Below, in pieces: positions 1-60,714 of a stretch of DNA of 64,000 nt (position 1 is the first letter of the stretch; each line of letters opens with the position of its first letter). Source of the stretch: a virus (lineage: Duplodnaviria > Caudoviricetes); IMG/VR virus record IMGVR_UViG_3300025597_000009, positions 1 to 64,000 of that record, one strand, 5' to 3'. Made by a program: the position numbers and the translations under genes. Below the pieces are notes generated by a model that searched no databases, was not told the origin of the DNA, and saw nothing but the letters and a program-made list of their open reading frames with translations.

Positions 1-2
1 CT

Positions 3-191: not shown

Positions 192-193
192 TT

Positions 194-493: not shown

Positions 494-539
494 CTCAACT
501 AAGTACCCATAATTTTTTACTATTAAATTATATAACACA

Positions 540-992: not shown

Positions 993-1005
993 TACTTTCT
1001 AAATC

Positions 1006-1440: not shown

Positions 1441-1447
1441 CATCAAT

Positions 1448-1759
1448 ATGATTCACATACAGAAAGAAATGATGCAAATAGCCTTTGTTCCTACAGCAAA
1501 TATTGATTCAATGAATGTATATGGTTGGGCTCCAGGTTCTGGATCACGATCTGTTAGTTTTTCTAATACGTCAACAGGAAATGCAAATCAGTATGAGCAT
1601 GTTATTAATGGAACTAGTTATGGAGTTAAATCAGGTTCTGGTGGGGTAACAACTATAACACTTAATGTGCCTAGTAGTTTTACTTTTGTAGCAAGAGTAT
1701 TTTATAATGGTACACTATTACAAAGTAAAACATATAGTGGTAATTTAACTCCCTATTAG
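1448..1759 (+). CDS. Hypothetical beta-rich virion-associated protein
   Basis: 103 aa Ser/Thr/Gly-rich ORF closing the + strand block. Confidence 0.5.
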   Translation: MIHIQKEMMQIAFVPTANIDSMNVYGWAPGSGSRSVSFSNTSTGNANQYEHVINGTSYGVKSGSGGVTTITLNVPSSFTFVARVFYNGTLLQSKTYSGNLTPY

Positions 1760-1820
1760 ACAGACCGTTACTCTAATAACCAAAACTAATTAGTTAGAAG
1801 ACCTTTATAGTTTCTTATTG

Positions 1821-1828
1821 TAGCTTTG
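1821..1828 (+). promoter_or_regulatory. Bacteroidota-type -7 promoter element
   Basis: TAGCTTTG matches TAnnTTTG; intergenic, upstream of ORF 1918. Confidence 0.45.
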
Positions 1829-1917
1829 ATTAGTAATCACCTACCTCACTCCCCAACCAAACAATCGAGTTTGAGTCTGTAGGTGGTTACCTCTTTTATT
1901 CTGGTTTACTTAACATT

Positions 1918-2193
1918 ATGGAAAAAACAATTGACTATTCAGAATTTAGACAGTCCTTAGAGTGGAACCCACAAGATGACTTTTTGATAAAAGGATACGA
2001 ACTTCAAACCTTAGTTGATATAGCTAATTTATTCAGACCCTTTATACAATCTGTAGATAGTGTAGTCCAAAAAAGTGTAGTAGATGGTAAAATTACAGCT
2101 ATCTTTTATGATAAAGATGGCAATAAGATTGACCCTGAACAAACACAAGCGTTGCTTAACCTAGTTAAAGAGCAGCTAGGACAACGAACCTAA
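1918..2193 (+). CDS. Hypothetical protein
   Basis: 91 aa ORF with its own putative promoter. Confidence 0.6.
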   Translation: MEKTIDYSEFRQSLEWNPQDDFLIKGYELQTLVDIANLFRPFIQSVDSVVQKSVVDGKITAIFYDKDGNKIDPEQTQALLNLVKEQLGQRT

Positions 2194-2248
2194 ATAAAAA
2201 AAAGTGTAGGGGAAGGTTTGTAATTAGGCCTTCCCTTTTTTATACTTA
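2194..2248. terminator. Bidirectional intrinsic terminator at the strand switch
   Basis: A-run, then GGGAAGGTTT-gtaatt-AGGCCTTCCC hairpin, then T-run, between convergent genes. Confidence 0.6.
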
Positions 2249-2514
2249 CCAAGTAGTTCAATAAGATCAATATCCAATACCTCAATAACTGTAGTACTTT
2301 GTTTGTTTAGGAACTCAGTAGACAGTTCTGTTTTTAGTTGATAAGCTTTTGTTCTACAAGTAAAGAAACTTCGGTTAAACGTTGTACTTACTCTTTCTAC
2401 AGCTTTGGCATCAATTTTAAATACTTGAGTTGAATCTTGATAAATGCATTGCTTTAGGGCATGCAACTCCTCCTGAGAGAATGGATTGTGTTTAGGTCCA
2501 ATCTTACGTGTCAT
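2224..2514 (-). CDS. Myb/SANT-like HTH protein (paralog of 2619..2981)
   Basis: FSQEELHALKQCI...VSTTFNRSFFTCRTKAYQL pattern. Confidence 0.55.
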   Translation of the reverse strand: MTRKIGPKHNPFSQEELHALKQCIYQDSTQVFKIDAKAVERVSTTFNRSFFTCRTKAYQLKTELSTEFLNKQSTTVIEVLDIDLIELLGKYKKGKA

Positions 2515-2544
2515 ACTGTTGAGCTTCTAGGCAGTTGTAGACTA

Positions 2545-2552
2545 CAAAGCTA
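2545..2552 (-). promoter_or_regulatory. Bacteroidota-type -7 promoter element
   Basis: TAGCTTTG on the minus strand, ~30 nt upstream of the ATG at 2514. Confidence 0.4.
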
Positions 2553-2618
2553 ATCAATAAGCATGAACATGGTATATTAAAAACACAACCATACTCATAC
2601 TTATTGATTATCAACAGA

Positions 2619-2981
2619 TTACACAGCAATCAAACTACTAGCATCTACTGAGATTATCAAGTTCCCTTCTTTAATTTCCAATTTCTCTATGGGTAAGTGA
2701 AACTGCAAGGGCTTGACAGATGGCTGTATCTGGGGTACTATTGGTAACTGTTGACCTTCAAGTTTGACTCTAAGCTTATCTGCTTTAATTCTACACCCAT
2801 TAAAACTCCTGTTTAGTTTAAGGGCAACATTTTTAACTAGATCCTGCTTAACAGATAACTGACCAATAGAATTTCTTACAATACATTTTTGAAGTTCATT
2901 CACTTCTGCTTTAGACCAATAGTTCCGATTCAGTGTTTTAGTACTCATGGTTGATTTTTTAAAGAAAATAATCTCTTTCAT
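2619..2981 (-). CDS. Myb/SANT-like HTH protein
   Basis: WSKAEVNELQKCI...VALKLNRSFNGCRIKADKL; likely starts at the second Met (MSTK). Confidence 0.55.
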   Translation of the reverse strand: MKEIIFFKKSTMSTKTLNRNYWSKAEVNELQKCIVRNSIGQLSVKQDLVKNVALKLNRSFNGCRIKADKLRVKLEGQQLPIVPQIQPSVKPLQFHLPIEKLEIKEGNLIISVDASSLIAV

Positions 2982-2987
2982 AGTAAA

Positions 2988-3014
2988 TAAAAAACCCAGG
3001 TTATTAGCCTGGGT
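2988..3014 (-). terminator. Intrinsic terminator
   Basis: ACCCAGG-ctaataa-CCTGGGT followed by a U-run on the minus strand. Confidence 0.55.
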
Positions 3015-3049
3015 ATATACATAAACTTAAGTAGTTGCTTTAATAAGCG

Positions 3050-3253
3050 TTACATTGTTGTTAGTTGCTGGGCTGGTTTCAAAAATAGAATACCATTATC
3101 CCAATCAATTCCAGGAATAACCGCATCCACTTCTACATGAGGTTTAGCTCTGGCAAAGAAAGGTTTATCTGCTTTTTCAACTGGGATAGCTACTTTGAAC
3201 TTTCGATCAGTAGGAAGTTTTTGTAGGGCTTCAATAAGCTCTAGATGATCCAT
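3050..3253 (-). CDS. Hypothetical protein
   Basis: Co-oriented, tightly packed ORF. Confidence 0.6.
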   Translation of the reverse strand: MDHLELIEALQKLPTDRKFKVAIPVEKADKPFFARAKPHVEVDAVIPGIDWDNGILFLKPAQQLTTM

Positions 3254-3265
3254 ATTAGATTTAGT

Positions 3266-3493
3266 TTAGTAATGTTTATCACCAGGTAAAGCACCAATTC
3301 TAGGATTGCTTCCATACTTGGTAGTTTCTCTTAAAACCCTAAGCAATTTGACTTCTACAGTTCTGTACTGTGCTGCTTTTTCATAATCTCGTTCTTTCAC
3401 AAAATCTCTTTTATAAGCTGTAGCTTTTAGCAACTCAATAAGTACATCTTGATCAGAATACTCAGGGTCAGCGTTAACTATTTTTACTTCCAT
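3266..3493 (-). CDS. Small protein with UvrB/UvrC (UVR) motif
   Basis: KRDFVKERDYEKAAQYRTVE resembles the UVR coiled-coil motif. Confidence 0.5.
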   Translation of the reverse strand: MEVKIVNADPEYSDQDVLIELLKATAYKRDFVKERDYEKAAQYRTVEVKLLRVLRETTKYGSNPRIGALPGDKHY

Positions 3494-3738
3494 TAGAATT
3501 CATGAAAGGATCTTTCACCTTGCCGATAATAAGTACCACCAATAAATGTGTAGTCTAGCTTACTATTTTCAAACCAAAAATGGATATAATGTCTCCGACT
3601 ATTTGGTTTAAACCATTTGCAATTTGACCTTGCTTGCCACACCTTGATTACTAGATAATCATCATCGGGAGTTCTTATCCTTTCAAAACTAATTCCATTA
3701 CTATCCAGGTAGGCAATCAGCTTCTCTAAATCGGTCAT
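3493..3738 (-). CDS. Hypothetical protein
   Basis: Stop/start overlap with neighbour. Confidence 0.6.
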   Translation of the reverse strand: MTDLEKLIAYLDSNGISFERIRTPDDDYLVIKVWQARSNCKWFKPNSRRHYIHFWFENSKLDYTFIGGTYYRQGERSFHEF

Positions 3739-3739
3739 A

Positions 3740-5131
3740 TCATATTGTACTGGCAGCAGTTTCCAAGTCCACTACTTCCTTGTCTAACTGCTTAGATTCC
3801 CATTCCAGGAACTTAAAGCTCTTCATCTTGTAGATGTTACAAATACCTGCTATATCCTGTCTGATACAGATTCCTTCATCAGGAAGGCCATCTGCCAGTT
3901 CATATTCTAGGTATTTGTCACATAGAGCTACACCAAAGTTAGCAGCCCAATCAGCATTGATTTTTAGTTCAGGAAATAAATCCTTAACCAGCCCTGAATA
4001 CAGCTCAGGTACAGTAAGTAGCCTATTAGCTTCACAGAAAGCTTTTACCTGTTCCCAGCTGTATTCCACTACTAATCCATCTGGACTAGTCATAGTAATT
4101 CGGTAAACAACAAAAACACACTCAAAAGGTTTCATGCCATACGTGTAAGGTTCAGCAATGTGATTACCTGCTGGAGTGTAACCTAAAACCTCCCCATAAA
4201 TAGAAATACCAGGAGTTAATACTGACTTATATTCCTCGAACACTGACCCATATACGTTGTCATTTTGAGCACCCAAATATTGATTGTCATAATCATTAAG
4301 TACTTTTCGTCGAGAAGCATACATTTTCTTATACCTAACATTAGATATTCTTGCTAGATCAAGGTTATCAAGAAGTTTTTCAAACCAGGAGAGCTTCCGG
4401 TCACACAGCAAATTTGATAGAATGACACTGGTGCCATGCAATTTCTGTGTAATAGTGATAAAACTGTTGGGTCCAAGCTCATTGATCCTACTTCCCAAGA
4501 ATGGTGTATTGAAGTGGAATCTGAATTGGTCAGGTAAGAGCAAAGAGTTACTGTCTGTTGTTCTGATGGTTCTTTCTGGTGCTGGCTTAACTGGTTTATC
4601 GCGTGTTCTAGGGACATACTTGGTACAAATCTCAGTGTTGACAATACAATCAAACTCCAGCCCATTCCATTCTTTCTTCAGTTGTTTAGCATTGTCAGCC
4701 ATTTCCAGATGATATTTTTCCAATTGCAACTCATTCAAGGTTACAGCAAGTACATCATCTAGTTTAACTAAGAAACCATAGCTAGGCTGTTGTCTAATCT
4801 TCAATGCTTTGACTCTACCCGTATGTTCAAAGAAACCAGTCTTAGAGCTATCAGCATTCAGTGTAGAGTCTTTAAACAGGTTTAGCTCACCTAGTAAGTC
4901 TTTATCAATTTGGCTTTCTAGGGGAAAGTAAACCATCAAGTCTCCTTTCTTGGCATAGTCTTTAGTTAACCAAACTGGTTGGTTATTGACTAGCCAGCCT
5001 TTAAGGTTCTTAGCTGATGGATGCGTTATAAACTGATCCAATGCAATCACCTTAGCCACATAGTTAGGACTATAGGTGTCACTCAACGAAAACAGATTAG
5101 TTATCATTTGTTTTACTGTAAAAATTTGCAA
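3740..5131 (-). CDS. ATP-dependent RNA ligase (DRB0094/Rnl5-like, with N-terminal OB fold)
   Basis: Motif I TQKLHGTS, IYGEVLG, FVVYRI, DEGICIR, IYKMKS. N-terminal HPSAKNL...GDLMVYFPLES...RVKALKIR...SYGFLV. Confidence 0.85.
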   Translation of the reverse strand: MQIFTVKQMITNLFSLSDTYSPNYVAKVIALDQFITHPSAKNLKGWLVNNQPVWLTKDYAKKGDLMVYFPLESQIDKDLLGELNLFKDSTLNADSSKTGFFEHTGRVKALKIRQQPSYGFLVKLDDVLAVTLNELQLEKYHLEMADNAKQLKKEWNGLEFDCIVNTEICTKYVPRTRDKPVKPAPERTIRTTDSNSLLLPDQFRFHFNTPFLGSRINELGPNSFITITQKLHGTSVILSNLLCDRKLSWFEKLLDNLDLARISNVRYKKMYASRRKVLNDYDNQYLGAQNDNVYGSVFEEYKSVLTPGISIYGEVLGYTPAGNHIAEPYTYGMKPFECVFVVYRITMTSPDGLVVEYSWEQVKAFCEANRLLTVPELYSGLVKDLFPELKINADWAANFGVALCDKYLEYELADGLPDEGICIRQDIAGICNIYKMKSFKFLEWESKQLDKEVVDLETAASTI

Positions 5132-5481
5132 TACCTAAAAACAGCTTTGGTAAGCCTTTCAAGCGTGATTCCTGGCATCTCACTGGATTCATATAGGTTA
5201 GTTGAGTGTTTGTTTACACGTATATAGCCAGCAGGGTTACCACATTTGTACACATGCTCTGATAATGGTAGTTTATTACCAGAAAGCTTATCAAAATCAA
5301 AGCCCCAACCAATAGAGAATGGATAGTTGTTATCAGTTGGGACACCTACCATTAATACTGGAGGATTCAACTTAAATTTCACTTGGTTAGCCTCTAAGAA
5401 ATACCATTTACGAACTATTTGTTCACTAAATTCAAAACCTAGAGACTCAATAAATGCTACTAGTACTTGTTTATTATCCAT
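5113..5481 (-). CDS. Small 'LGF' paralog family protein
   Basis: N-terminus MDNKQVLVAFIESLGF. Confidence 0.6.
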   Translation of the reverse strand: MDNKQVLVAFIESLGFEFSEQIVRKWYFLEANQVKFKLNPPVLMVGVPTDNNYPFSIGWGFDFDKLSGNKLPLSEHVYKCGNPAGYIRVNKHSTNLYESSEMPGITLERLTKAVFRYCKFLQ

Positions 5482-5486
5482 AGGAA

Positions 5487-5780
5487 TCAGATTAGTTTTT
5501 TATTGGTTACCATCATTAATAAGCCATTAAGTAGCTTAGTTGGGTCTTCATACAAACCTCCATATTCACAGCCATCTATAGTCCTCATATCTAGTCTGTA
5601 AAGTTGAAGTAAACTAGCTGGAGTAGGTAGTCTTATCTCAACATACTTGGTATCAACTAATGAAATGAATTTGTATTGATTAGGGTTAGTTAATCGCCAA
5701 TACGCATAGAAAGTTGTGTTGTGGTTAATTAGCTCAAAGCCTAATTGCGTTAGTGCATCAATTAATTGCTCTCTTTCCAT
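5487..5780 (-). CDS. Small 'LGF' paralog family protein
   Basis: MEREQLIDALTQLGF. Confidence 0.6.
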   Translation of the reverse strand: MEREQLIDALTQLGFELINHNTTFYAYWRLTNPNQYKFISLVDTKYVEIRLPTPASLLQLYRLDMRTIDGCEYGGLYEDPTKLLNGLLMMVTNKKLI

Positions 5781-6069
5781 GCTCTAGTAATTCAATTACC
5801 CTAGTGAGGAGATTACTATAATTACCTGGCTCAAACATTTCATGTTTATAACCAGTTTTACTATTTACTTCTTTAAAGTATAGACTAAGTGTAAGTTTCT
5901 GTTCCTTTTCAGAAATAGGCACCTTAATAAAAGCATCTTTAATAGTTTGGTTTGTTGACCACTTCATCTCTATTACTTCCAAATCAAACCATTCTACAAC
6001 GTCATAAAACTTACAATCTTTCACAAAGCCATATTGGAGTAATTTATCTATTAACACTTCTCTTGTCAT
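5758..6069 (-). CDS. Small 'LGF' paralog family protein
   Basis: MTREVLIDKLLQYGF. Confidence 0.6.
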   Translation of the reverse strand: MTREVLIDKLLQYGFVKDCKFYDVVEWFDLEVIEMKWSTNQTIKDAFIKVPISEKEQKLTLSLYFKEVNSKTGYKHEMFEPGNYSNLLTRVIELLEHGKRAIN

Positions 6070-6355
6070 GTCTTACTAATTTAAAAAGGGCAGGTAATAC
6101 TTTTTCATAAGCACCAATTCCTAACGTTAATTGCTTGTACCTGCCAGGATCATTACTTGTAAGATAATAGATAATAAGTGACTCAGTTTTCTCAAAAGTT
6201 TTAGTGGGTATTCTAATTTCAATATGAGTTACCCAGTGGCTATTCATCCATTTTGCATTGACTTCTTCCAGAACAAGCCAATCAGCTAATGTACTTGGCT
6301 GATCTTGTTTAAGTCCAAGTTGTGTCAACTGAAAAATCAAGTTTGATCTAAGCAT
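6044..6355 (-). CDS. Small 'LGF' paralog family protein
   Basis: MLRSNLIFQLTQLGL. Confidence 0.6.
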   Translation of the reverse strand: MLRSNLIFQLTQLGLKQDQPSTLADWLVLEEVNAKWMNSHWVTHIEIRIPTKTFEKTESLIIYYLTSNDPGRYKQLTLGIGAYEKVLPALFKLVRHDKRSVNR

Positions 6356-6359
6356 GAGA

Positions 6360-6662
6360 TTAGTAAAACACTTTAAAATTTGAGATATTATTTTCAGTCA
6401 AAGCTTTTATTAACATACCAAAAGCTATTTCTGGCTTTTGTGTTGCAAACTTTAGTCCACCCTTACTACTGCCTCTAAAAAGATATACCTGAAATTCTTC
6501 TAAAGTTCTACTATATCTAAAAGATACTTCTTCAAAGTCTTTTAGGGTAGCCCATTTATGGTGTTGAGGATAAATACACCACCAAGTAGTGGTTAATTCT
6601 TCTTTGTGGAAGCCGAGTAATTGTAATTCTTTTTCGTAGGGATTTACTACTTGGTGGTGCAT
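6360..6662 (-). CDS. Small 'LGF' paralog family protein
   Basis: YEKELQLLGF...WW...KW. Confidence 0.55.
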   Translation of the reverse strand: MHHQVVNPYEKELQLLGFHKEELTTTWWCIYPQHHKWATLKDFEEVSFRYSRTLEEFQVYLFRGSSKGGLKFATQKPEIAFGMLIKALTENNISNFKVFY

Positions 6663-6665
6663 AGG

Positions 6666-6929
6666 TTATTTAGCTTTTCCAGCTTGTTGTTTTAGATTGT
6701 TAATGCCTACATTAAGGGTATGATTAGCTGCACTTAGTTTTTTATTCTTTTCCATAAGTGCATCATTCTGCTCTCTTAATGCCTGAACTTTTTTAGCTTT
6801 AGCTGAATTGTCTTCCTTTAATTTAGAGACTTCTTGTTCTAAACCTGTTACTTGCTTGAGCAAGAACTTATTGTGTTTAGTCATCAGCTTAAACTTGACT
6901 GGCAAGGGTAATTCGTGGAAGCTACTCAT
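6666..6929 (-). CDS. Coiled-coil protein
   Basis: Heptad repeats; LREQNDAL is shared with the neighbour. Confidence 0.55.
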   Translation of the reverse strand: MSSFHELPLPVKFKLMTKHNKFLLKQVTGLEQEVSKLKEDNSAKAKKVQALREQNDALMEKNKKLSAANHTLNVGINNLKQQAGKAK

Positions 6930-7144
6930 ACATCACAATGTTCTAATGATTCTAGCAAATGCTGCTGAAGTAGTGCATTTAATCCTTCAAGTGTTTTTAC
7001 TCTATCCTTTAGAGATCTAACCTGGGTAATAAGCTTTTCATTTTTAGTCTCTAAGGCTTTATTCTGCTCTCTTAGCTTACCTATTCTGGCTTCCTGCATT
7101 TCAATTAATTGCAGATTTTCCAGCACTGATTTGTGGTTAAACAT
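6926..7144 (-). CDS. Coiled-coil protein
   Basis: Heptad repeats; LREQNKAL. Confidence 0.55.
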   Translation of the reverse strand: MFNHKSVLENLQLIEMQEARIGKLREQNKALETKNEKLITQVRSLKDRVKTLEGLNALLQQHLLESLEHCDV

Positions 7145-7160
7145 AACGCTGGTCAGTGAG

Positions 7161-7403
7161 TTAGGTTTGCAAAATGGCTGTAGCCAATGAATCTAGATCT
7201 TTATCTGGCAACTTGTTGAACCAGTCAATAAATCCATTTTCTAAAGACTTGATAAGCATAGGCTTTGTTACTGCACCATATCTTAATTCTTCTAGTACAG
7301 ACAAAGCAACCCCCTTGTACTCAAAACCAGGAGCACCCTTGGCTATTAATCCCAAGGGGTCATGGTGATCCAGGAGATAGTTTAGTTTGTTGTAATCCAG
7401 CAT
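7161..7403 (-). CDS. DUF1871-like protein
   Basis: HDPLGLIAKGAPGFEY motif. Confidence 0.5.
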   Translation of the reverse strand: MLDYNKLNYLLDHHDPLGLIAKGAPGFEYKGVALSVLEELRYGAVTKPMLIKSLENGFIDWFNKLPDKDLDSLATAILQT

Positions 7404-7442
7404 ATTACACTTAGAAATCTATTACGTTTTCCATTTTCATTG

Positions 7443-7664
7443 TCAGGCAGTAACATCTTTTCCGGCAAGGATAGTATCCGGATCTACAACTTCTATATCA
7501 ATGTCAACATAAGTCATTGTAATTGTTTTAGTGTCCGCATTCTTAGCAGCCCACTCTAAAGCAGCATCCCAACCTGACTGATAAGAAAATCTGTTTTGAC
7601 TGGCACAAGCAGAAATACTGTTTTCACGTACATATTCTAATGCCAGCTTTTCTTTTAGCTTCAT
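7443..7664 (-). CDS. Hypothetical protein
   Basis: Packed co-oriented ORF; SYQSGWDAALEWA phage helix motif. Confidence 0.55.
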   Translation of the reverse strand: MKLKEKLALEYVRENSISACASQNRFSYQSGWDAALEWAAKNADTKTITMTYVDIDIEVVDPDTILAGKDVTA

Positions 7665-7972
7665 TGTTTGTTGTTTAGTAATTCATTTTTTATTAAAAAT
7701 TTTTTACACTCATCAATAGCATTCAATAAATCTTCATCAGTTTCAATGCTATCCTGAAACCACAGGAATCCTGTACAATTATCATCTGAATACCGATTAT
7801 TCCAGCAACTATACTGTTTTACTAAATATGAATGAGGTGAATCATGTTCTGCACCTACAACCTCATAACTTAGTAACAAAGAGGTTGGAGTATCATGTTC
7901 TAATTTAAAATCAAACCAAACTCCTTCAATTTGAACTTGAGGTGGTAATTCTTTTAGTTTTTCTACTATCAT
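7661..7972 (-). CDS. Hypothetical protein
   Basis: ATGA overlaps with both neighbours. Confidence 0.6.
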   Translation of the reverse strand: MIVEKLKELPPQVQIEGVWFDFKLEHDTPTSLLLSYEVVGAEHDSPHSYLVKQYSCWNNRYSDDNCTGFLWFQDSIETDEDLLNAIDECKKFLIKNELLNNKQ

Positions 7973-8307
7973 AACTCAATTCGGGGTAATGAAGATACAC
8001 TATAACCTTGAAGTTGATGTGTTAAACGAATAATTTCTGCAAATGCTCTTTGTTTAGCATCAAACATACCAAAAGGCCATGCTGAAATATCTCCATTTTG
8101 ATGGTTAATGTAAATTTTTTGAGAGTTATAAATAACATAATAACCCTCTAACTGCTTCTGTAGTATCTGAATACGTACATGATTTAGCTGATTTTCATTA
8201 TGTATTAACCCAATTGATTTACCTTCAGGTGTAAAGAGTTCTACAGTAGTTCCCCAAATATCTTGCGGAGGAATTACAACTCGATTTTCCATAGTTATAA
8301 AAAACAT
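7969..8307 (-). CDS. Hypothetical protein
   Basis: Packed co-oriented ORF. Confidence 0.6.
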   Translation of the reverse strand: MFFITMENRVVIPPQDIWGTTVELFTPEGKSIGLIHNENQLNHVRIQILQKQLEGYYVIYNSQKIYINHQNGDISAWPFGMFDAKQRAFAEIIRLTHQLQGYSVSSLPRIEL

Positions 8308-8347
8308 AGGTGGTTCGGATTACTCCTCCCCACCTTTATTATGTTAG

Positions 8348-8635
8348 TTAATCAAATACAGCCCGAATGTCATTGTCAAAAGGAGAATACTCAATCTGGT
8401 TAAAGGTGAAGTATTTCCCAGCAGTAAGCACCATGTTGCCATGCTTCTGATCTGTTTCATCTGGCCCATCATGCCTGACTACTCCAGTACCTTTTAAAAG
8501 CAGCTCAATAGCTCCTTCATGTTGTTGATAAGCAAAGTCCTTTGTACATTCCAGGGTATGGGAGTTCAATCCTTCTCCTTGAAGCAGGACTAGTTTTTTA
8601 GCTTTGTTCATTGGATAAATTAAGATTAAAAACAC
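8348..8635 (-). CDS. Small His-rich beta protein (likely start MNKAKK)
   Basis: LLQGEGLNSHTL, VRH, KHG and QIEYSP...RAVFD motifs of a phage family usually found next to DUF6745-like genes. Confidence 0.55.
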   Translation of the reverse strand: MFLILIYPMNKAKKLVLLQGEGLNSHTLECTKDFAYQQHEGAIELLLKGTGVVRHDGPDETDQKHGNMVLTAGKYFTFNQIEYSPFDNDIRAVFD

Positions 8636-10206
8636 GCATTAAACAATTTCAGCAATTTAGTTGCTTCATTTTTTGACAACATTACTTTTGAATGTTTATT
8701 ATAAAAAGACATCCATTCACTAACCACTTTGTTGGTTTTCCACGCTTCAAAATAAGATACAATTGTATTTTCAAAGAGTTTGAAATTAAGTGTATCAGTT
8801 TTTTCTTCAGAAGTGTTTAACCAATTAAATAGTTTATTCCTAAACCGCTCACAGCCTTTGTAACCCCCATCTTGCCATTTCCCACCTTCAAAATAATGAT
8901 TAATAAACATCAAATACATTCTAAGAAGTTGTGGATCATAGCCTAAAGGACTAATCACATTCCCTTTTGACTTTGACATTTTTTCACCATCTGGGCCTAA
9001 AATCATACCTTGGTGTATGACCTTTTTAAAAGGCTCATCAAAATCAATATAACCAATATCATACAAGAATTTACAAATAAATCTTGAATAAATTAAATGC
9101 ATACAGGCATGCTCTGGGCCACCAACATATACATCTACAGGTCTTGATTTATCATACTCAATAGTATAAAAAGAGCTATCTACAAATGTATCCAATGTGT
9201 CTAACTCTCCTTCTATTGGAATAGAGCAACCCCATGTACGCTGTCTGGATACACACCAATCAGTTAGTTTATAGTTTGTAGCTTTCTTAATAAAACTATA
9301 CTGTTGATAATCAGTTAGTATCCTTTTATCATTAGAAAATCCTATTCCATGCCTGTTGGCAAAAGAAGCATCTCTACTGTCATCATTAGGTACTCCCATA
9401 ACATATTGTGTACCATACCCTTCAATTACATATTCAGCTGTGTAAACGGGTATTTGATTACCTTTAATGAGTGGGTGTTCACAATAACCAATAAACTTTT
9501 CTATACCATCTTCTTCTAAAGCTGTTACAATAAAAGCAACATCCAATAAAGTTTCTGGTTTAGTAGTAAAGCAAGTAATACCACTTCCGAAATCAATATT
9601 ATAGCCTTCACTTTTACCAATCCAATTAATCTGTTGTTTTTTTGTAGATATTGGATAATCCACTTTATCCAGATCAGACAGTAATCGTTCAGCATAATCT
9701 GTAATTTTAAAGAACCATTGATTTAGTTCTTTTTTTAGTACAGCAGTGCCACATCTATCACAGGTTTCATTCTTAACTTGCTCTCTAGCTAATACTGTTT
9801 GACAAGAAGGGCAGTAATTTTCTTTTCTAATAGCTTTATAAGCTAAACCATGTGATAATAATTCATTAAATAGCCATTGGGTTCTTTGTTGATACGCTTC
9901 TGAATGGGTAGACAATTTAGTTTGAAATCCAGTACTCATTCGAAGCATCTCATTCTCAAAATTAAGAATATTGGCTTCAGTAATTTCTTTGGGGTTACCT
10001 CCAACAAGCTTTGCATAGTTTTCAGCCGGTAATCCAAAAGAGTCATAACCAAAAGGTTGAAATACAGTATGGCCTAAGTACTTTTGAATTTTACAATAGC
10101 TGTCTACAATGGCATAATTATACCAATGCCCTATGTGTAATCCATATCCACTTGGATATGGAAACATTACTGTAATGTACTTATCCATATTATTACGATT
10201 CAGCAA
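8626..10206 (-). CDS. leuS: Leucyl-tRNA synthetase, class Ia, miniaturised
   Basis: MFPYPSGYGLHIGH, GYDSFGLPAEN, Zn knuckle CPSC/CDRC, QWFFKITDYA, DWCVSRQRTWG, DTLDTFVDSS, GGPEHACMHLIYSRF, KMSKSKGN. Confidence 0.93.
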   Translation of the reverse strand: MLNRNNMDKYITVMFPYPSGYGLHIGHWYNYAIVDSYCKIQKYLGHTVFQPFGYDSFGLPAENYAKLVGGNPKEITEANILNFENEMLRMSTGFQTKLSTHSEAYQQRTQWLFNELLSHGLAYKAIRKENYCPSCQTVLAREQVKNETCDRCGTAVLKKELNQWFFKITDYAERLLSDLDKVDYPISTKKQQINWIGKSEGYNIDFGSGITCFTTKPETLLDVAFIVTALEEDGIEKFIGYCEHPLIKGNQIPVYTAEYVIEGYGTQYVMGVPNDDSRDASFANRHGIGFSNDKRILTDYQQYSFIKKATNYKLTDWCVSRQRTWGCSIPIEGELDTLDTFVDSSFYTIEYDKSRPVDVYVGGPEHACMHLIYSRFICKFLYDIGYIDFDEPFKKVIHQGMILGPDGEKMSKSKGNVISPLGYDPQLLRMYLMFINHYFEGGKWQDGGYKGCERFRNKLFNWLNTSEEKTDTLNFKLFENTIVSYFEAWKTNKVVSEWMSFYNKHSKVMLSKNEATKLLKLFNACF

Positions 10207-10969
10207 CTAACTTCTCTTTGTATTGATCGGCAGTAAGGTGATACCACTTGTCTTGAGGAAGTAATCCTGTACTAGGATCAACTTCAACTAGAAGCAAATC
10301 ACCCTGTCGTTTAATACTTTTTACCTTTTCCCAGGGAACACCAATACGGAATGTCCAGGCAATAGCTTCTACAGCTTTGGCTGGTCTCATCATTGCATTC
10401 CTGTACGCCCAGGATCTCCAATGACTCTTTGATTCTCCTTCTTCGTAGAAAGCATTTCTATCCACAAAAATCCAGTATTCTCTACCTGTTGAAGTACACC
10501 AACACCTTACCAGATATAAAACACCATTACCATCTTGATAGACAACTGGTTTTAATAATACAGAAGCAAGAACACTATATAATTCATACGTATCCTCAAT
10601 AGTTTCTGTGTATGGTTTGTTGTCAGCATCCCATTTGGTATTGGTTTTAATCAGTGTTTCCTTATCTACTAAGGTTAGTTTATCCTTGATCTCATTGATG
10701 TACGTAGCTGGATTCAAACAAGTAAATAGAGCCCTTCTTTTCTCTATATTGTCTTGCTGTAGAATATCTGAAAAACCATAAGGCTGTATTAAATCCCAGG
10801 ATTCAGCCATCAATTCCCAAAGATCAAGAAGGATTCTATCAACAGCTTGATTCTTTTGATACAGCTCCAGAGCCTGATATTTAGTTTTCATGGCTCTCAT
10901 GTACTCCGTTAAGCCAAAATTGTTAACTCCATTGAGTACAAACGTTAGTGTATGCAGGTTGTTGGTCAT
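10193..10969 (-). CDS. DUF6745-like phage protein
   Basis: NIEKRR, VRCWCTSTGREYWIFV, AVEAIAWTF, RQGD motifs; ends in AES. Confidence 0.55.
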   Translation of the reverse strand: MTNNLHTLTFVLNGVNNFGLTEYMRAMKTKYQALELYQKNQAVDRILLDLWELMAESWDLIQPYGFSDILQQDNIEKRRALFTCLNPATYINEIKDKLTLVDKETLIKTNTKWDADNKPYTETIEDTYELYSVLASVLLKPVVYQDGNGVLYLVRCWCTSTGREYWIFVDRNAFYEEGESKSHWRSWAYRNAMMRPAKAVEAIAWTFRIGVPWEKVKSIKRQGDLLLVEVDPSTGLLPQDKWYHLTADQYKEKLVAES

Positions 10970-10971
10970 AA

Positions 10972-11655
10972 TTACCAGTAACTAGTAGTTTTCAGATTCA
11001 TTGTCTTATTAGAAATTTCAATCTCATGATAAATCTCTTTATCTGCTACTTGACCAATTTCCAACTTGATAGGCTCAGTTACCATAAAGTTAGTGTCGAC
11101 ATACAACCTACAACCATCACTGTATTCATAGTCATTGAGTAAGGTTATCAATTGATCTTTTAGACTGTTTTCAAGGCTGATAAACTGAGTAAACCAGGGA
11201 CCATTTTTAATGTTAACTCGAACTCTAATTGTATCATCAGGGTCATAGTCATCAGTAATACGAGCATATACATTCACACTATCAATGAGGCCAGCATAAG
11301 GTTCCTCAATAAAGTCTAGTATTCGTAGCTCATGAGTAGCTATGGTTTCCTGATTTTCTTCATCATACTCATTTCCAGAAAGGATTACTTTAGATTGGTG
11401 TTCATCATATCGGATAGTACCATCACTAGAGAAATCACCAGCCCAACTACCATAAGCTAAAAGCTGTTCACATTCATATTCCAGATAGTTTTGGACAGCT
11501 TGTCTAACTTTCTCATCTATCTCAGGGTGTTCTTCTAATTCAATAGTACAACCACCACTATCATTGCCCCCATTCCAATTTCCAGATAGCTCACATTTGC
11601 TGAGCACATCCTTCAGATTCACTTTGATTGTCTGAGGTTTCTCTTCTGTTACCAT
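10972..11655 (-). CDS. Acidic hypothetical protein (DUF6878-like N-terminus)
   Basis: WNGGNDSG motif; adjacent to the DUF6915 gene. Confidence 0.5.
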   Translation of the reverse strand: MVTEEKPQTIKVNLKDVLSKCELSGNWNGGNDSGGCTIELEEHPEIDEKVRQAVQNYLEYECEQLLAYGSWAGDFSSDGTIRYDEHQSKVILSGNEYDEENQETIATHELRILDFIEEPYAGLIDSVNVYARITDDYDPDDTIRVRVNIKNGPWFTQFISLENSLKDQLITLLNDYEYSDGCRLYVDTNFMVTEPIKLEIGQVADKEIYHEIEISNKTMNLKTTSYW

Positions 11656-12022
11656 TTTCTACTTCTTTTAACCAATGTAATTCTCTTGGGTCTGGATGAT
11701 TAATCCAGGATTCTTTTGTTTCAAATGTTATACATCTTAGCCAATCAGCTGGAGCAGGAGCTTTGCCATTATGGTCTTCCTTGAGGTGTTCAATCAATAC
11801 ATCTCTTACCGAGAGTACACCTCCAGTTTTAGTATTAGGAACAGTATCCCCAAGCAGGTCCACCACTACACTAATAAACCAGAGATTATGAGAGAACATT
11901 CTATGTTGCCACTGAGGAAAATACAGCTTACTACTATCCATTAGTTTATGGAGCTTTAAGGTATCTTCTACATGGCAATTAAACTTCCTGGCTGATATCT
12001 TGGCGTGATCCAGGTAAAACAT
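11591..12022 (-). CDS. DUF6915 family protein
   Basis: HAKISARKF...LHKLMDSSK...HRMFSHN...VRDVLIEHLKED motifs. Confidence 0.7.
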   Translation of the reverse strand: MFYLDHAKISARKFNCHVEDTLKLHKLMDSSKLYFPQWQHRMFSHNLWFISVVVDLLGDTVPNTKTGGVLSVRDVLIEHLKEDHNGKAPAPADWLRCITFETKESWINHPDPRELHWLKEVENGNRRETSDNQSESEGCAQQM

Positions 12023-34012: not shown

Positions 34013-37000
34013 TTATTTCTGCCAGTGAGTTGCCATTTTCATGGAAGATTGCATACTAAGTCCAATCAAGTAACTGGACCCAACTTCTTCCATAATTTCC
34101 CTAATTCGTTTAGCAATATCTTCTCGACCTTTTGGGATTTGTACTACAAGTTCATCATGCACACTCAATTTGATACTACAGTCAGGCTGTGTTAGTATAT
34201 AATTATGCACAGCTATAGTAGCTTCTTTTAACATGGAAGCAGCTGAGGCTTGGATCATTTTATTACCCTACTTGCTCTTTATCAAGTAGTTCTGAATATT
34301 TCTATTCAGTTTCGACTATATCACAGCGTAAGTATTTAATTATGTTTTGACTAAAGTCTAATAGTTCTCCAGGCGTTGCATTGTTTTTCATAGTGTTAGC
34401 TTTCATTGAGATAATTCTACAATTATCTGGAGTATATCCAAAATCAAGTCTAACCCTATCAATAGAAGGGGAATTTATTGGTAAGTTAGCTTCATCTAAC
34501 AACGGAATGTTTAATAAAGGGCAGTACTTGGGAATTTTCAAAGATTCAAGTGTTAAACTAAAATCAAGTCCTTTTTCTGCTGCTCTTTTTTTAGCATTTC
34601 TTACCAAAGTGGTCATAATTCTTCTTTTATAGGATTCTTTTCTAAGCTTAGAAAGCCTTTCCTTAAATTCAGTGTCCTTATGAACCCTTTCTCTTCTTTG
34701 TTTATTAATAGCATCTCTTCTACCTGTATTGTGCTCATTATGATAAGCATTAAAACAATCTCTACATTTTCCTGTAGGATAGCTACAATAGCTTTTCTTC
34801 CCTGACTTTAATACATTGTATTTTGTCATTATAGGGAAAGCACTTATTGGTAGTTCCTGTTTACATCTAGTACAAACTTTACTAGTTTTTTCCTTTTTCA
34901 TAACGTCTGAATTGATTCTCAAACTTATAAAATGAGGAATTAACTTTCATAACTATAACTAATTATGCTTACACCCTGGACACTCGTGTTAGGATTATTG
35001 TCTACAATAACTCACCTATTAGTCTGTGAACTTTCCCCATACTTTTATTTGCTTTCAGGGGCTTAGCTGCTGATTATCCAATTTTTCAACTTTTCAAACA
35101 TTCACAATTGCCATTTCTAGCTTTGTTGTAGTGTTAAAAACTCTAAGGATTTTCCAGCAATTCATCCAGTTTTACTTTCCCTATCCATTAAGGAAAATTG
35201 ACACCTTCTTTTTCTACTTCATAGTCCTCAGACATTTTCTTAGTAAACCAATTGAACCGTCTGATTCTATTGATTTTACTACCACATCTGACTTCCATGT
35301 TATTAACTACTTTCCGTTTAATCTTCTGCTGATACTCATGTAGTGCTTTTAGATTGGCTTGTAGCTTAGCTAATACTTTCTTGGCCACAGGCACTTCAAT
35401 GTTAAGAACAGCAGCAATCCTGGCAGCTCCTCCACCAAAGAGAACAATTATGTTATCTCATCAGCTCTTTATCTGATGATTCTACAGTTTCATTTTTAGA
35501 TTATATCTGTAGTTCAGACTATATCATAAGTATTTTAAAGAAAATACTCCCGGACGCTCGTGTTAACTTCATCACTGTTCTAGTGGTATGTTATTAGTCG
35601 TTGAACCTTCTAAGTATCCCTACTTAGCTTGGCTGCTGATTATCTATCTCTAGTTTTCCCAGCAGTTCATCCGGTTTTTTTTGGGCTATCTCACAAGCTA
35701 AATCAAATTTCCTTTTTAAATAATAGGCCGCATCTTTGTAAAGATAATTTATCAATTGCTTAGTTTGCTTCTGGTTCATTTCAAGTCTATAGGTTACTGT
35801 GTTAGTATAAGAAGTTTCTGACCATTTGATTATACTACCTAGATGTAATTCTAAAAAATTACATAATTTATCAAACAACTTTTTTGAACATGAAACAAAC
35901 CCAGACCTATGCTTTGCACTAAAATGCCCATCTCCATCCATTAATCCTCTAACAAAATCCCAAGTAAACTCAAATTCAGGATTTACTATTATGGATTTTT
36001 TAGCGGGTATTCCTAATGAAGTTATAAATTTATGCAAGTCTTTATGGCCAAATAAAACTTCATAACATTCATTAACTTTGTATATACTTATATTCACACC
36101 TAAAAACTTTTGAAATTGTTCAAGAAGTTCTTTATCTTTTTGAACAATAGAAATAGTTTTTTTTGTTGACCCTAAATTCCCATCTGTTACAATTATACCT
36201 AACCAGTACATTGCACTATGGTTCAATTTTGTAAAACAACTTATATCTTGAAGTACTCTATTTTTCCCTCCACTACCTTCTAAAGGTATATTGTGCTTCT
36301 TATAAGTTTTTATTACAAATGGCCTCCCATAACCAAACATAGTACAAATTTGATTAGGGGTGTGACAATAAGCATACTCAAGTATTTTAAGTTCTTTATA
36401 ATTATAAAAGTTAAAATTTAAACTTTTTGAAACTTTTTGTACTTGATGGTAAGAGATGTTAAGTTCCTCTGCAATTGATTTTATTGATGCACCCTTTTCT
36501 AATTTTTCTTTAATTTGATCTAGCATTTTATTCATTATTTACTTATGTAAAAATAATGAATTTTTTGACAATTATTCAACCCAAACAAAACAGGTTTGTG
36601 GGGATCTCTTAGTTCTCCATTTACTTCTTTGCTAACAATGAATGTAGGGTCACCTCTAATGATCCGGTGTGTGTCCTGAGCCAGGAAAGAGTGTAAATCC
36701 ATTCCTTTATTAAAGTTATCCAGTAGGGCTTGATCCTGGCTATAGGAAGCAGCTAACCTTAACTCTTGATTAGATAAATCCACATCCACAAATACATAAT
36801 CCTCAGAGTCAGGAACAAAGCATTGTCTGATCTCTTTAATAGCTGGAAGATTTTGCATATTAGGATTATTGCTGGATAACCGACCAGTAGCAGTAAAGCA
36901 TTGAGAAAAATCAGAATGAATCCTTTTTGTAACTGGATTGATATACTTTAAAAAGTTATCTCCATAAGTACTGATTAGCTTACTATACTCCCTGTGTTTA

Positions 37001-44815: not shown

Positions 44816-44923
44816 CCCAGGGAAAAGGAATCGAACCTCTATACAAACTGATTCAGTTAATGAAAGCCTATTATTGGCTTTTATAAAACCTCAGTTTTGC
44901 TCTACCAGTTGAGCTATCCCCGG
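44816..44923 (-). ncRNA. tRNA-like RNA with expanded anticodon arm
   Basis: Acceptor CCGGGGA/TCCCTGG, D-arm TAGCTCAACTGGTAGAGC, T-arm AGAGG-TTCGATT-CCTTT. 43 nt sit where the 7-nt anticodon loop should be. Confidence 0.75.
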
Positions 44924-56001: not shown

Positions 56002-58230
56002 TTAATCAGCCAGGAGTTGAGTCACTCCAGCTACATCTTTAGCCCAGTCCAGATCATAGACTTCATTGGCCTCAGCTGGCTCACTGATAATAGTAAGCCC
56101 TTGAGCTAAGGCTTTTATTACTAGTAACTTCTGAATACTGAATTTGGCAGATAGCTTATTGAGCATAGCCTTTACATTGTCCATACCACTTTTACCTGCA
56201 TTACCTGTTTGGGGCATTTCTAGCCAGACAATTTGTTCAGCCTGAAGATCCAGGTAACCAAAAATCAACCCTTGACCTAATTCTGATTTAACAGAAATCA
56301 TCTGCTCTACACAGGAAGGATCAAAAGCAACTCCAGATGCAGTTACTTTCATAGGATTTGTAGAAGCCATCCAACCTACTCTCAGATTCATTTCCAGAGC
56401 ACTCTTATTATAAGCTCTGCAATGGAAGATCACACCAGAGGCCCCATTAGCTTGTAGCTTTTCTACATCCAGGTTAATAAATTCAGCTGTACCAATCTTA
56501 TTAGGAATGTGTTGAATATCCCCTGAATGAGTGGCCCCTGTAATGTTAAGGTGACCGAAGTAGCAGATGTCTGTATGATTTGGATAGACCACATCAGCAT
56601 ACAAATCCATATCTAGGTGTTGAGCTGGTAATCCTTCTCCCCAATTCATAAACAGTCTGACTTGTTTAGATTGTAGTGGGAATCGTTGTCCTTGCAAGAA
56701 ATGAGCTAAGTCCTGTACAGTTTCTGATCTGTCTCCAATGCTAAATGGAATGTACTCAAGATCAGGATGAATGTACATGGTTTTGTTTTCATTAGGAGTA
56801 GCAGCAAATCTCTGGAAGATAGCTTCATCTACTAAGGACTCAACTAGTTCCATGTATTGCTTTCTTTCTGTAGCTGACATAACTGCTACCAATGGATGTG
56901 GGTCAATAGTTTTAGTTAATCCAGCTCCTAATGGTTTTACCACTCTAGTTTGACCAGAAAAGTAAACTTTAGCAGCCTGAGTTAATGTAACAATGAGCCT
57001 CATAGGTAGCTTAGTAAGCACTTCTTTAAACGCATCCATAACTAGGGCAGCATCATACTTCAGCAACAAACTAAATAGCATTCTAGAAAATACTCCTGGA
57101 CGTTGTTTTAGTAAGTGCAATCCTAGAGTAAGACTGTGCTCTTTCATGGCCTTGTTGACCAAATGAGCCCAACCTAAACCAGTACCTTGATTTTGGAAGA
57201 TATACAGCAGATCCTTTAGTCGCTCAAAACCAGCTTGCTTGGCAAACTCATTCAATCTAGCTGCTCTGATGAACCTAACCCACATTTCTCTGTGAGGATT
57301 CATAGAGTCTAATACTGGCCTGATGCCATCAAATTCATTCATCCACTCAGCAATCTTCCTGGCTTCTGGTCTAGAATACTTTAGTTTCAGTTGCTCCTTT
57401 TTATTGGCAACCTCACTAGTATTCACAGAACTCCGGTATCTACTGTAGCCTCTTCTACTATCTCTTGCTGTTTTGTTGAGAATAGTCTTAGGCTTAACAA
57501 TCTGAAGATTACCCGTATGTTTATACCACAGATATCTTAACACATCAGAAGGCAGCTTAAAAAGCTTACTAGCTTCTTTACGTTTACCCAAGGCTACCAA
57601 TTGATCCACCAGGAACATTTTGGTTTCAATCATGCCTACTTCTACCTCTGGTACTGGGTAGATTTCTAGCAAGGTTAACACAGCTTCTTTCTGTGTACCA
57701 TCTAAAGGAGTCTTAGACTTCAACAGATTATCAAAGTAGTTCAGTAACTCCCGGTCTCCCCATAGCTTGAGTATTTTCAGCTTAGAACCCTGGCCTACTG
57801 GAATCTCCATATCAGCCTCAAAAGGAGTACCACAAAAAGGGCAACCATTGTACTTTTCCAGCTCAAACACATTGGCCGGGATAGTGTGTCCACAAACTAA
57901 AGTAGTTCCTGATCCACCAACTAACTGGTTAAACCAGGTAAGCACATGAGCAAACTCACTGTCTTTAGGTGGCACATCCCACTGTTTGATCAGAGGAGTC
58001 CAATTTAATTTGCTGCCTGTAACAGTCCTTACAAAATCCACATACAAATCCTGAAATTCTTCTGTGGTTGTTTTCCAGATAGACAGGGCTTTTGAGTCCA
58101 ATGTATAGCCTAGTTCCTTCAATTTAGCTAGGTTTACAAAGGTGGAGACCCAGTTCTGAACACTGGTAATCTCTTGGGCAGGCACATAGATAGCACCTTG
58201 CCGAATGGCAATTTTGTTGTGTTTTTCCAT
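56002..58230 (-). CDS. Large protein with prokaryotic RING-like Zn finger, helical core and C-terminal TerD-like domain
   Basis: CGH...YNGCPFCG, DVLRY, RPGVFSRML, VRLFMNW, DMDL, HSGDI, TAEFINLD. Confidence 0.75.
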   Translation of the reverse strand: MEKHNKIAIRQGAIYVPAQEITSVQNWVSTFVNLAKLKELGYTLDSKALSIWKTTTEEFQDLYVDFVRTVTGSKLNWTPLIKQWDVPPKDSEFAHVLTWFNQLVGGSGTTLVCGHTIPANVFELEKYNGCPFCGTPFEADMEIPVGQGSKLKILKLWGDRELLNYFDNLLKSKTPLDGTQKEAVLTLLEIYPVPEVEVGMIETKMFLVDQLVALGKRKEASKLFKLPSDVLRYLWYKHTGNLQIVKPKTILNKTARDSRRGYSRYRSSVNTSEVANKKEQLKLKYSRPEARKIAEWMNEFDGIRPVLDSMNPHREMWVRFIRAARLNEFAKQAGFERLKDLLYIFQNQGTGLGWAHLVNKAMKEHSLTLGLHLLKQRPGVFSRMLFSLLLKYDAALVMDAFKEVLTKLPMRLIVTLTQAAKVYFSGQTRVVKPLGAGLTKTIDPHPLVAVMSATERKQYMELVESLVDEAIFQRFAATPNENKTMYIHPDLEYIPFSIGDRSETVQDLAHFLQGQRFPLQSKQVRLFMNWGEGLPAQHLDMDLYADVVYPNHTDICYFGHLNITGATHSGDIQHIPNKIGTAEFINLDVEKLQANGASGVIFHCRAYNKSALEMNLRVGWMASTNPMKVTASGVAFDPSCVEQMISVKSELGQGLIFGYLDLQAEQIVWLEMPQTGNAGKSGMDNVKAMLNKLSAKFSIQKLLVIKALAQGLTIISEPAEANEVYDLDWAKDVAGVTQLLAD

Positions 58231-59853: not shown

Positions 59854-60281
59854 ATTAGCACCCTCTTCTCACTATCCTTTTCTGTCAAGCAGTAAGTGTA
59901 GGGTCACGTAGTTATTATATCTCGTTGTAGTAAGGACTGGGAATCCTCTGAGGTGATCGTTCCTCCATAATTAACTACTTGCTGAGAACTCATTAATGTG
60001 GAGTTGGAGTGATTCAGGAGTGTATAGCATTACCTTGTCACCAACTTTGCAAATTTCCCTTTACAGGTACTTTCCTGACATTCTATGCTCTTTCTCAAGG
60101 AGCCCACATTTCTAGGATTTCTCTTTCTGATAGCTACGGGTTTAAATTCTCTAATGTCTTAATATGAAGAGACCTAAGCATTATTAAGTAGACTGCTACT
60201 ACTCAGAAACTCATTAACTAGAGCTAGTATCTTTATTGAAATTAGATTAGTATAATTTCAACCAGGATCAATGTTTAGCCT
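59854..60281 (-). ncRNA. Large structured ncRNA, unit B (428 nt), family unrecognised
   Basis: Shares five ordered sequence blocks and covarying stems with unit A; no ORF of 60 aa or more. Confidence 0.72.
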
Positions 60282-60571
60282 ATTAGCACCCCTTAGTCAC
60301 TGTTACCTTCCATAGAGGAGGTGGTTTACCAGTCGGGTCAAGCTGAGAACTCATTTGTGTTGTATAACGAATGTCTAAACGATACTCATGTTATATTTAC
60401 ATCATTCCTTTCTCAAGGGAACAACACATCCATCATTACTGAAGCTAATCCTCCTTCTCTTCTATTGGCGAAGATTTGTTGGGTTGTCTTTAGCTAGTTT
60501 GTCAATTCAAACTTGGTATCTTTTATCAAGGCTAGATTAGTATAGCCTGACCAGGAATCAATGTTTAGCCT
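60282..60571 (-). ncRNA. Large structured ncRNA, unit A (290 nt), family unrecognised
   Basis: AGGCTAAACATTGAT..., TACTAATC loop, CTTGAGAAA loop, AATGAGTTCTCAGC, GGGTGCTAAT end. Confidence 0.72.
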
Positions 60572-60577
60572 GTTATT

Positions 60578-60714
60578 TTCCATGCTATCTGGACTCGAAC
60601 CAGAATCAATCAGAGGACTTACACCTCAACTTCAGTCCTGTTTAGGTGCTGCTTGGATTTACCCAAGCCCCGTATCTCTACAGGGGGATCTGCCATTCTC
60701 CCATGGACATGGAA
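60578..60714 (-). ncRNA. tRNA-like RNA (~137 nt) with a multi-hairpin insert
   Basis: Terminal stem TTCCATGT/GCATGGAA, D-like GGGAGAATGGCAGATCCC, T-arm TCTGG-TTCGAGT-CCAGA, three internal hairpins. Confidence 0.65.

Follow-up and report, generated by a model that had tools for sequence, protein, structure and literature searches.

We identified two adjoining units, A and B, in a 64,000-nt window of phage DNA as genes for one phage-specific family of structured, pseudoknotted non-coding RNAs. Related units occur on more than one hundred other phage contigs, where covarying helices and compensated pseudoknot changes accompany a nearly constant set of loops and joiners, and data on the Cellulophaga phage phi14:2 strongly suggest that the family RNA is stable and abundant during infection. 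The window belongs to an IMG/VR virus record of 100.6 kb (estimated 43% complete, ~36% G+C) in which units A and B are the only copies.

Units A and B lie head-to-tail on the minus strand with zero spacer, and the P1 stem of unit B borrows the final bases of the unit A tail (Table 1). A preliminary description made from this DNA alone had proposed two abutting minus-strand units without spacer, and both the sequence and a block-by-block alignment confirm the arrangement, with loops and joiners identical between the two copies and all stems different yet complementary. Its view of the stretch as free of ORFs is borne out for the minus strand, on which there is no ORF of ≥40 aa in 59854–60571 or between the stop of ORF 61413–60721 and the start of ORF 59836–59648; three plus-strand ORFs of 50–58 aa overlap 59854–60571. 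The sizes first given, 290 and 428 nt, hold as unit lengths, of which only ~140 nt form the conserved core and the remainder consists of variable inserts. Together with a tRNA-shaped RNA, the two units make up a run of three RNA-like elements on the minus strand with gaps of 0–18 nt. Both units score significantly against a covariance model, R1, built from seven minimal members that all lie on other contigs, and the low score of unit B is due to its long inserts. Each unit has P1 with the AAACAUUGA loop, a GNRA-capped P3 one base before P4 (GUAA on a 5-bp split stem in A; GAAA with one mismatch in B), the exact CUUGAGAAA loop and AAUGAG-UUCUCAG-C motifs with different complementary P4/P4a stems, and P6 followed by the GCUAA tail (ACCC/GGGU with one non-pair in A; canonical in B). 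The 5′ strand of unit A P3 is split by a large three-way junction consisting of two inserted hairpins, one with the loop AAUUGA.

Table 1. Structured RNA features of the window (positions count from its first nucleotide; bits and E values are from covariance model R1)
Feature	Position	Strand	Basis or remark
tRNA-shaped RNA: 8-bp acceptor-like stem, D-like hairpin, canonical T arm	60578–60714	−	Upstream of unit A, 6 nt away
Unit A, complete family member, ~290 nt, 'complex' class	60282–60572	−	All family blocks; 64.9 bits, E 1.8e-10
Unit A P1 hairpin CAGG/CCUG, conserved loop containing AAACAUUGA	60552–60572	−	P1 stem covariation across family
Unit A P2, variable hairpin, loop UACUAAUC	60527–60549	−	Loop common to unit B only; P2 length and sequence vary among members
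Unit A joiner AUAAAAGAUA, then P3 (CCA^UC/GAUGG) with GUAA tetraloop cap	60430–60526	−	Family P3 pairing statistics
Unit A P4 (UGUGUUG/CAACACA) around P4a (UUCC/GGAA, loop CUUGAGAAA) and variable P4b	60356–60428	−	P4/P4a covariation
Unit A AAUGAG joiner, pseudoknot strand UUCUCAG (partner: P4a loop) and C	60342–60355	−	Compensatory variants in relatives
Unit A 3′ domain: P6 (ACCC/GGGU), variable tip, then GCUAAU tail	60282–60341	−	P6 compensations elsewhere
Unit B, second complete member, ~428 nt	59854–60282	−	28.8 bits, E 0.005
Unit B P1	60263–60282	−	Family block
Unit B P2, variable hairpin	60235–60262	−	Family block
Unit B P3, large inserts, GAAA cap	60112–60227	−	Family block
Unit B P4/P4a	59995–60110	−	Family block
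Unit B pseudoknot strand	59981–59994	−	Family block
Unit B extra hairpin P5	59907–59979	−	Optional element of the family
Unit B P6 and tail	59854–59906	−	Family block

The family fold opens with P1, a 4–6 bp hairpin with a 10–14 nt loop containing AAACAUUGA, followed by an optional and highly variable hairpin P2 and the joiner AUAAAGAUAC. P3 is a 5–6 bp hairpin closed throughout the family by an N-GNRA-N loop, with the tetraloop GUAA in 84 cores and GUGA, GAAA or GAGA in the others; in a 'complex' class, to which unit A belongs, a junction bearing a hairpin with an AAUUGA loop is inserted into the 5′ strand of P3 and splits it. One A separates P3 from a 7-bp P4 that encloses a 4-bp P4a (loop CUUGAGAAA) and a variable P4b, and directly 3′ of P4 stand AAUGAG, UUCUCAG and C, of which UUCUCAG pairs with the P4a loop to form the pseudoknot. 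An optional hairpin P5, present in unit B, precedes P6 (ACCCU/AGGGU, whose variable tip lies beyond a small internal loop) and the GCUAA tail. Five peripheral sites accept large inserts, in line with the constant scaffold with variable inserts first proposed, and ~60 nucleotides of the ~140-nt core are near-invariant, many of them unpaired.

Most elements singled out in the preliminary description correspond to this fold. Its 5′ block, its nested hairpins, the strand that follows them and its GGGUGCUAAU end are real and represent conserved blocks of the family, whereas its list overlooked the GNRA-capped P3 just before the 7-bp helix. A further hairpin that it described, with the loop UACUAAUC, is common to both copies but is the variable P2, where this loop is not a family feature, and the likeness of the loop to the spliceosomal branch point is the coincidence that had been suspected. 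A proposed closure between AGUG and the 5′ CAUU found no support; the 3′ AGUGA is not conserved and pairs locally within the 3′ helix. Pairing of the P1-loop CAUU with the joiner AAUG was also rejected, as it comprises 4 bp only and loop variants are uncompensated, and comparison of the P1 loop with the adjacent phage tmRNA gave no consistent complementarity.

To define the family we searched IMG/VR for two 14–15-nt blocks. Searched separately, these returned mostly chance matches and three contigs with both blocks at unit-like spacing. A combined pattern of the P4a loop, 25–55 nt and the pseudoknot strand matched at least 120 phage contigs, compared with ~6 that we estimate to be expected by chance, and nearly all of the matches also carry the remaining family blocks. 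We obtained about 110–124 distinct cores and 106 distinct full units, with lengths of 143–516 nt and a natural minimal form of 143–152 nt, exemplified by L215:998–1140 and L227:10916–11067. A global alignment derived from R1 (A4) was unreliable at both ends owing to long inserts, and anchored extractions and MAFFT cores were used instead. Among 185,579 prokaryote species genomes (one per species), the exact pattern gave 44 matches against ~34 expected by chance on our estimate, and R1 accepts one of the 44, on a 20-kb contig of a Sphingobacteriales metagenome-assembled genome; a search with R1 of 150 further genomes sampled from the same phylum returned no other match. The family is thus phage-specific and essentially absent from bacterial genomes, and its occurrence in a Cellulophaga phage and on the Sphingobacteriales contig points to Bacteroidota hosts. 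Several Lachnospiraceae/Eubacterium genomes (L290, L301, L304, L308, L311, L314 and L320–L322) match the pattern within an identical 66-nt span that R1 rejects and that is probably a conserved unrelated gene.

Database searches agree with the earlier impression that these RNAs fit no recognized family. With Rfam 15, units A and B gave no match at gathering scores and, with the threshold relaxed to E 10, nothing beyond chance-level matches of eukaryotic snoRNA type below 19 bits; the units match none of the GOLLD, ROOL, RNase P, tmRNA, tRNA, known-ribozyme or Y RNA-like models. The same search over ten other loci found the neighboring tRNAs and tmRNAs and no match to the family units. Cultured phages searched by BLAST with the window region and with a typical unit gave no match, and the phi14:2 unit as query found phi14:2 itself and a P6-only remnant in phages phi4:1 and phi17:2. 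A full-text literature search for the signature motifs gave chance primer matches only.

Comparison of more than 100 homologs supports the selection on RNA structure that had been deduced from the two copies in the window: helices covary through doubly changed pairs, G–U pairs are tolerated on the minus strand only, and the pseudoknot is compensated. In a MAFFT core alignment of 110 sequences (A5), changes occur on both sides in seven of seven P4 pairs and three of four P4a pairs, with 96.1% of P4 and P4a cells paired versus 37–46% with slid partners and 146 doubly changed cells versus 21 in shuffles; none of 500 shuffles reaches the observed values. In P3, the three pairs nearest the loop are 99.1% paired, each with double changes, and again no shuffle in 500 matches. 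P1 stems appear in 32 distinct combinations (for example AGGU/ACCU, CUCC/GGAG, GUCG/CGAC and UGGC/GCCA), with at least four contiguous pairs in 82 of 100 units; as loop lengths differ, the ungapped P1 alignment (A6) permits no single structure line. P6 is mostly invariant, with compensated types ACCUU/AAGGU, GCCCU/AGGGC and AUCCU/AGGAU. The near-invariance of the pseudoknot was fixed by the search pattern, and its variants come from members found via other blocks. Four such variants are compensated: loop A to G with strand U to C (L040), loop A to C with strand U to G (L021), loop UUGCA with strand UGCAA (L083) and loop UUGACA with strand UGUCAG (L087). These independent changes support the predicted pairing and back the contact between loop and 3′ strand that the preliminary description had put forward. 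The ends of P4, GUUG…CAAC, resemble Bacteroidota CRISPR repeats; P4 covaries freely in sequence, which is impossible for a repeat mimic, and an RNA anti-CRISPR that imitates a solitary repeat seems unlikely.

The pattern of base pairing also identifies the functional strand. An almost invariant U–G pair in the pseudoknot and further G–U pairs in P4 would be A–C mismatches on the opposite strand, which assigns function to the minus strand of the window. Conserved blocks are invariant at every position and insert lengths keep no reading frame, indicating that the units are not protein-coding. Minimum-free-energy folding of the minimal form recovers P1, P3, P4, P4a and P6, with energies no better than those of shuffled controls (z of −1.6, −0.3 and −0.6, from calculations that ignore the pseudoknot), and the structural evidence is therefore comparative and not thermodynamic.

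Evidence for transcription comes from phi14:2, a crAss-like phage unrelated to the window phage in size and gene content, which carries a full family member (KC821624 2913–3361, plus strand; R1 54 bits, E 4e-10) with every block present, compared with two copies in the window phage. The IMG/VR locus L257 is identical to phi14:2. The member begins 9 nt after gp006, within a 685-nt gap. Drobysheva et al. (bioRxiv 10.1101/2020.03.07.982082; later Nature) report two long intergenic regions of phi14:2 whose rightward transcription exceeds that of most genes, starts early and persists; transcripts of both are already there at the first time point and show no drop as others of the early set fall. The authors label both as long non-coding RNAs of unknown function and give the transcripts without sequence family, structure or function. 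In GenBank numbering the gp005–gp006 gap is merely 18 nt. In our own reconciliation, the sole consistent mapping, g004, g005 and g006 of the paper would be GenBank gp006, gp010(-012) and gp015/016, which would place the abundant regions at 2905–3589, containing the family member, and at about 4102–4601, containing a tmRNA. On this inferred mapping of gene numbers, the family member most likely lies in the 'g004–g005 junction', one of the two highly transcribed regions. The second region is most likely the phage tmRNA that ARAGORN calls at KC821624 4031–4500 (plus strand; tag GSSVQKLAMVA) and that scores 46 bits with the Rfam tmRNA model (gathering 47); GenBank lists no tmRNA feature within region 1–12000 of the record. 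Minus-strand ORFs gp007–gp009 (34–39 aa; KC821624 3106–3431) overlie the member and are probably spurious, and RefSeq NC_021806 marks the original small-ORF features over it as removed. Phages phi4:1 (KC821632 2501–2597) and phi17:2 have the P6 module and tail only, in a 143-nt gap after the gp006 homolog, as either a remnant or an autonomous module.

The surroundings of the units are rich in tRNA-like elements. The tRNA-shaped RNA next to unit A has extra hairpins in place of the anticodon arm and is called by neither ARAGORN nor Rfam, and comparable uncalled elements, which contain long inserts and a type-II-like D arm, adjoin units in L011 (about 333–470), L241, L245, L244 and L267. Units adjoin each other (the window and L210) or tRNA-like elements at 0–6 nt, with uncalled tRNA-like elements lying 3–6 nt from the GCUAA tail, and the adjoining tRNA-like elements offer a natural route for RNase P to form unit ends. 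A tRNA or tmRNA lies within 1.5 kb in 32 of 106 units, always on the same strand, with a tmRNA just downstream in 13, and ORF clusters near units are all on the strand of the unit. A Bacteroidota-type promoter motif is not enriched upstream of units (8/101 versus 10/101 control windows), and no terminator or promoter excess was found around the units of the window. A list of co-occurring genes had been suggested as a check; that drawn up within 6 kb of the units from 103 loci contains no constant neighboring protein family, and the commonest cluster, phrog_15656 (which includes phi14:2 gp006), occurs at 24 of them in varying positions.

Parts of the fold also occur separately. In L266, L267 and L280 a stand-alone P3-P4-pseudoknot module, with neither P1 nor P6, directly follows the stop codon of a protein gene and is itself followed by an intrinsic terminator (L266 and L280) or a tRNA-like element (L267). 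A second conserved module of ~50 nt, which starts with AGCUAAGCUGUGUAAAGC and has an AGCU/AGCU-type closing stem, adjoins the 5′ end of units in at least nine loci (L186, L195, L214, L219, L220, L247, L250, L255 and L123), preceded in L220 and L123 by a TAnnTTTG promoter-like motif, and looks like another uncatalogued small RNA. Elsewhere in the window, Pfam searched at E up to 0.01 recognizes neither TROVE nor TerD in a 742-aa downstream gene (56002–58230, minus strand), which shows only a weak prokaryotic RING match and a match to phrog_33734. Rfam also finds a group I intron at 35495–35727 (minus strand; 58.2 bits, gathering 50) beside ORF 35624–36535 and a tRNA match of 108 nt at 44816–44923 (minus strand; 43.6 bits), which ARAGORN does not call and which could represent a tRNA carrying an insert or intron.

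How these RNAs act can be approached from their conservation. Some 60 near-invariant nucleotides, many unpaired, combined with a GNRA cap and a pseudoknot suggest a compact tertiary fold with exposed elements that bind something, and the partner is probably a host factor, since the RNA is common to widely differing phages and has no phage protein as its constant companion. We tentatively favor, at a little under even chances, a stable trans-acting RNA made from a polycistronic transcript that serves as a decoy or RNP scaffold for a Bacteroidota host RNA or translation factor. The units of the window, apparently with neither promoter nor terminator of their own, would share a transcript with downstream ORFs and, upstream, with the tRNA cluster and the tRNA-like RNA. 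Cleavage at the adjoining tRNA-like elements by RNase P and further host nucleases would then free the units as stable, abundant RNAs. The freed RNAs would then act in trans throughout infection, with the compact core presenting its invariant single-stranded loops and joiners to a conserved partner, and a second copy would raise the dose. Set against a decoy or scaffold are the variable company of proteins, with no constantly adjacent gene even for the best cluster (24/103 loci), the unremarkable predicted folding energies, and the reduced forms, P3-P4-pseudoknot before a terminator and P6 alone in phi4:1, which also suit cis-acting roles. Among the functions first proposed, a ribozyme and an RNP scaffold or decoy are still live, and a guide or template array has no support.

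The family could instead be a new self-cleaving or otherwise catalytic RNA whose core cuts at or near its own boundary and frees both itself and neighboring RNAs or mRNAs. The density of near-invariant unpaired nucleotides around a GNRA tetraloop and pseudoknot in a 140-nt core is of the kind expected from a ribozyme, spacerless adjoining units must be separated, and the P3-P4-pseudoknot module is able to stand alone. We nevertheless consider catalysis unlikely: no Rfam ribozyme model matches at E up to 10, the topology by inspection is neither hammerhead nor HDV-like, the sequence at unit junctions is not conserved beyond the tail, and with tRNA-like neighbors at hand host RNase P could readily produce the ends. 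An HDV-like fold was rejected on inspection of the consensus, which has a single pseudoknot with no second nested knot and a first P4 pair of U–A or C–G, not G–U, and a hammerhead was rejected as the consensus lacks the CUGANGA/GAAA three-way-junction core; the Rfam models for both are silent as well.

If the family were instead an operon element acting in cis (a processive antiterminator, a processing signal, or a stabilizer or insulator of RNA, for example), RNA accumulation would be a by-product of stability. Units always co-oriented with their flanks, the lack of an enriched dedicated promoter motif (8/101 versus 10/101), the module between stop codon and intrinsic terminator in L266 and L280 and the retention of just the P6 module after the homologous upstream gene in phi4:1 would all fit such an element. 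We judge it distinctly unlikely, as tandem copies in the window and L210 have no obvious purpose in cis, many units are flanked by RNA genes and not ORFs, and the RNA is common to phages with different RNA polymerases; in phi14:2, moreover, the region is reported to exceed most coding genes and to persist as other early transcripts fall (10.1101/2020.03.07.982082).

A conjecture that we regard as improbable is an RNA-only quaternary assembly like ROOL, GOLLD or raiA, in which partnerless invariant loops contact other copies. Cryo-EM work shows that RNAs of this type form homo-oligomers (PMC12286853). The family occupies a similar niche, phage-borne, beside tRNAs and abundant, and for its invariant AAACAUUGA and AAUUGA loops and GCUAA tail no covarying intramolecular partner was found; set against this, no self-complementary conserved loop or loop–loop covariation was found, and the core falls far short of ROOL or GOLLD in size. 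Finally, tandem copies and overlapping plus-strand ORFs of 50–58 aa could be read as a decayed DNA duplication, a small protein gene, or a DNA element such as an origin or a site of packaging or recombination, with no RNA function, which is very improbable when more than 100 homologs keep their helices through double changes and strand-specific G–U pairs, the two copies differ in every stem and keep every loop, inserts break reading frames, the phi14:2 member is, through the inferred gene mapping, abundantly transcribed, and RefSeq has dropped the small ORFs once annotated over it.

Orphan structured RNAs with this degree of conservation and covariation have repeatedly proved to be ribozymes, riboswitches or unusual RNA assemblies. 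The present family is common in environmental phages, absent from Rfam and essentially absent from bacterial genomes. A far-reaching possibility, which we consider doubtful, is that it constitutes a new functional class of RNA made only by Bacteroidota phages: a ribozyme, a self-assembling machine or one that captures a host factor, needed throughout infection by phages that range from a crAss-like podovirus to one of >200 kb. P3-P4-pseudoknot would in that case be an autonomous domain, also fit for grafting onto the 3′ ends of mRNAs. The cultured and transcriptome-profiled pair of Cellulophaga baltica and phi14:2 makes the role of abundant phage non-coding RNAs near tRNA and tmRNA genes testable, and the natural minimal forms of 143–152 nt suit biochemistry and structural work. 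What is new is the RNA family and its fold; the transcript itself had been seen before, and unnamed fragments of the family could be among the motifs of an automated phage RNA catalogue (PMC10690425).

Several known RNAs resemble the family in part. Like GOLLD and ROOL, it is phage-borne, often lies beside tRNA genes, is elaborately folded and is expressed in lytic growth. It differs from them in matching neither model at E up to 10, in a core of ~140 nt compared with their 500–800 nt and in hosts that appear to be Bacteroidota, and no sign of multimers was seen. The stable RNAs C and D of phage T4 are small, are co-transcribed with phage tRNAs and are released by host processing enzymes; they are tRNA-sized and not known to have this pseudoknot core. 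Y RNA and YrlA with Ro60, 6S RNA and CsrB are distinguished by Rfam, in which the family has no match, and its units have no Ro-type bulged helix, but the working principle proposed here would, by analogy, be alike: an abundant, stable RNA with conserved single-stranded elements, sometimes present in several copies.
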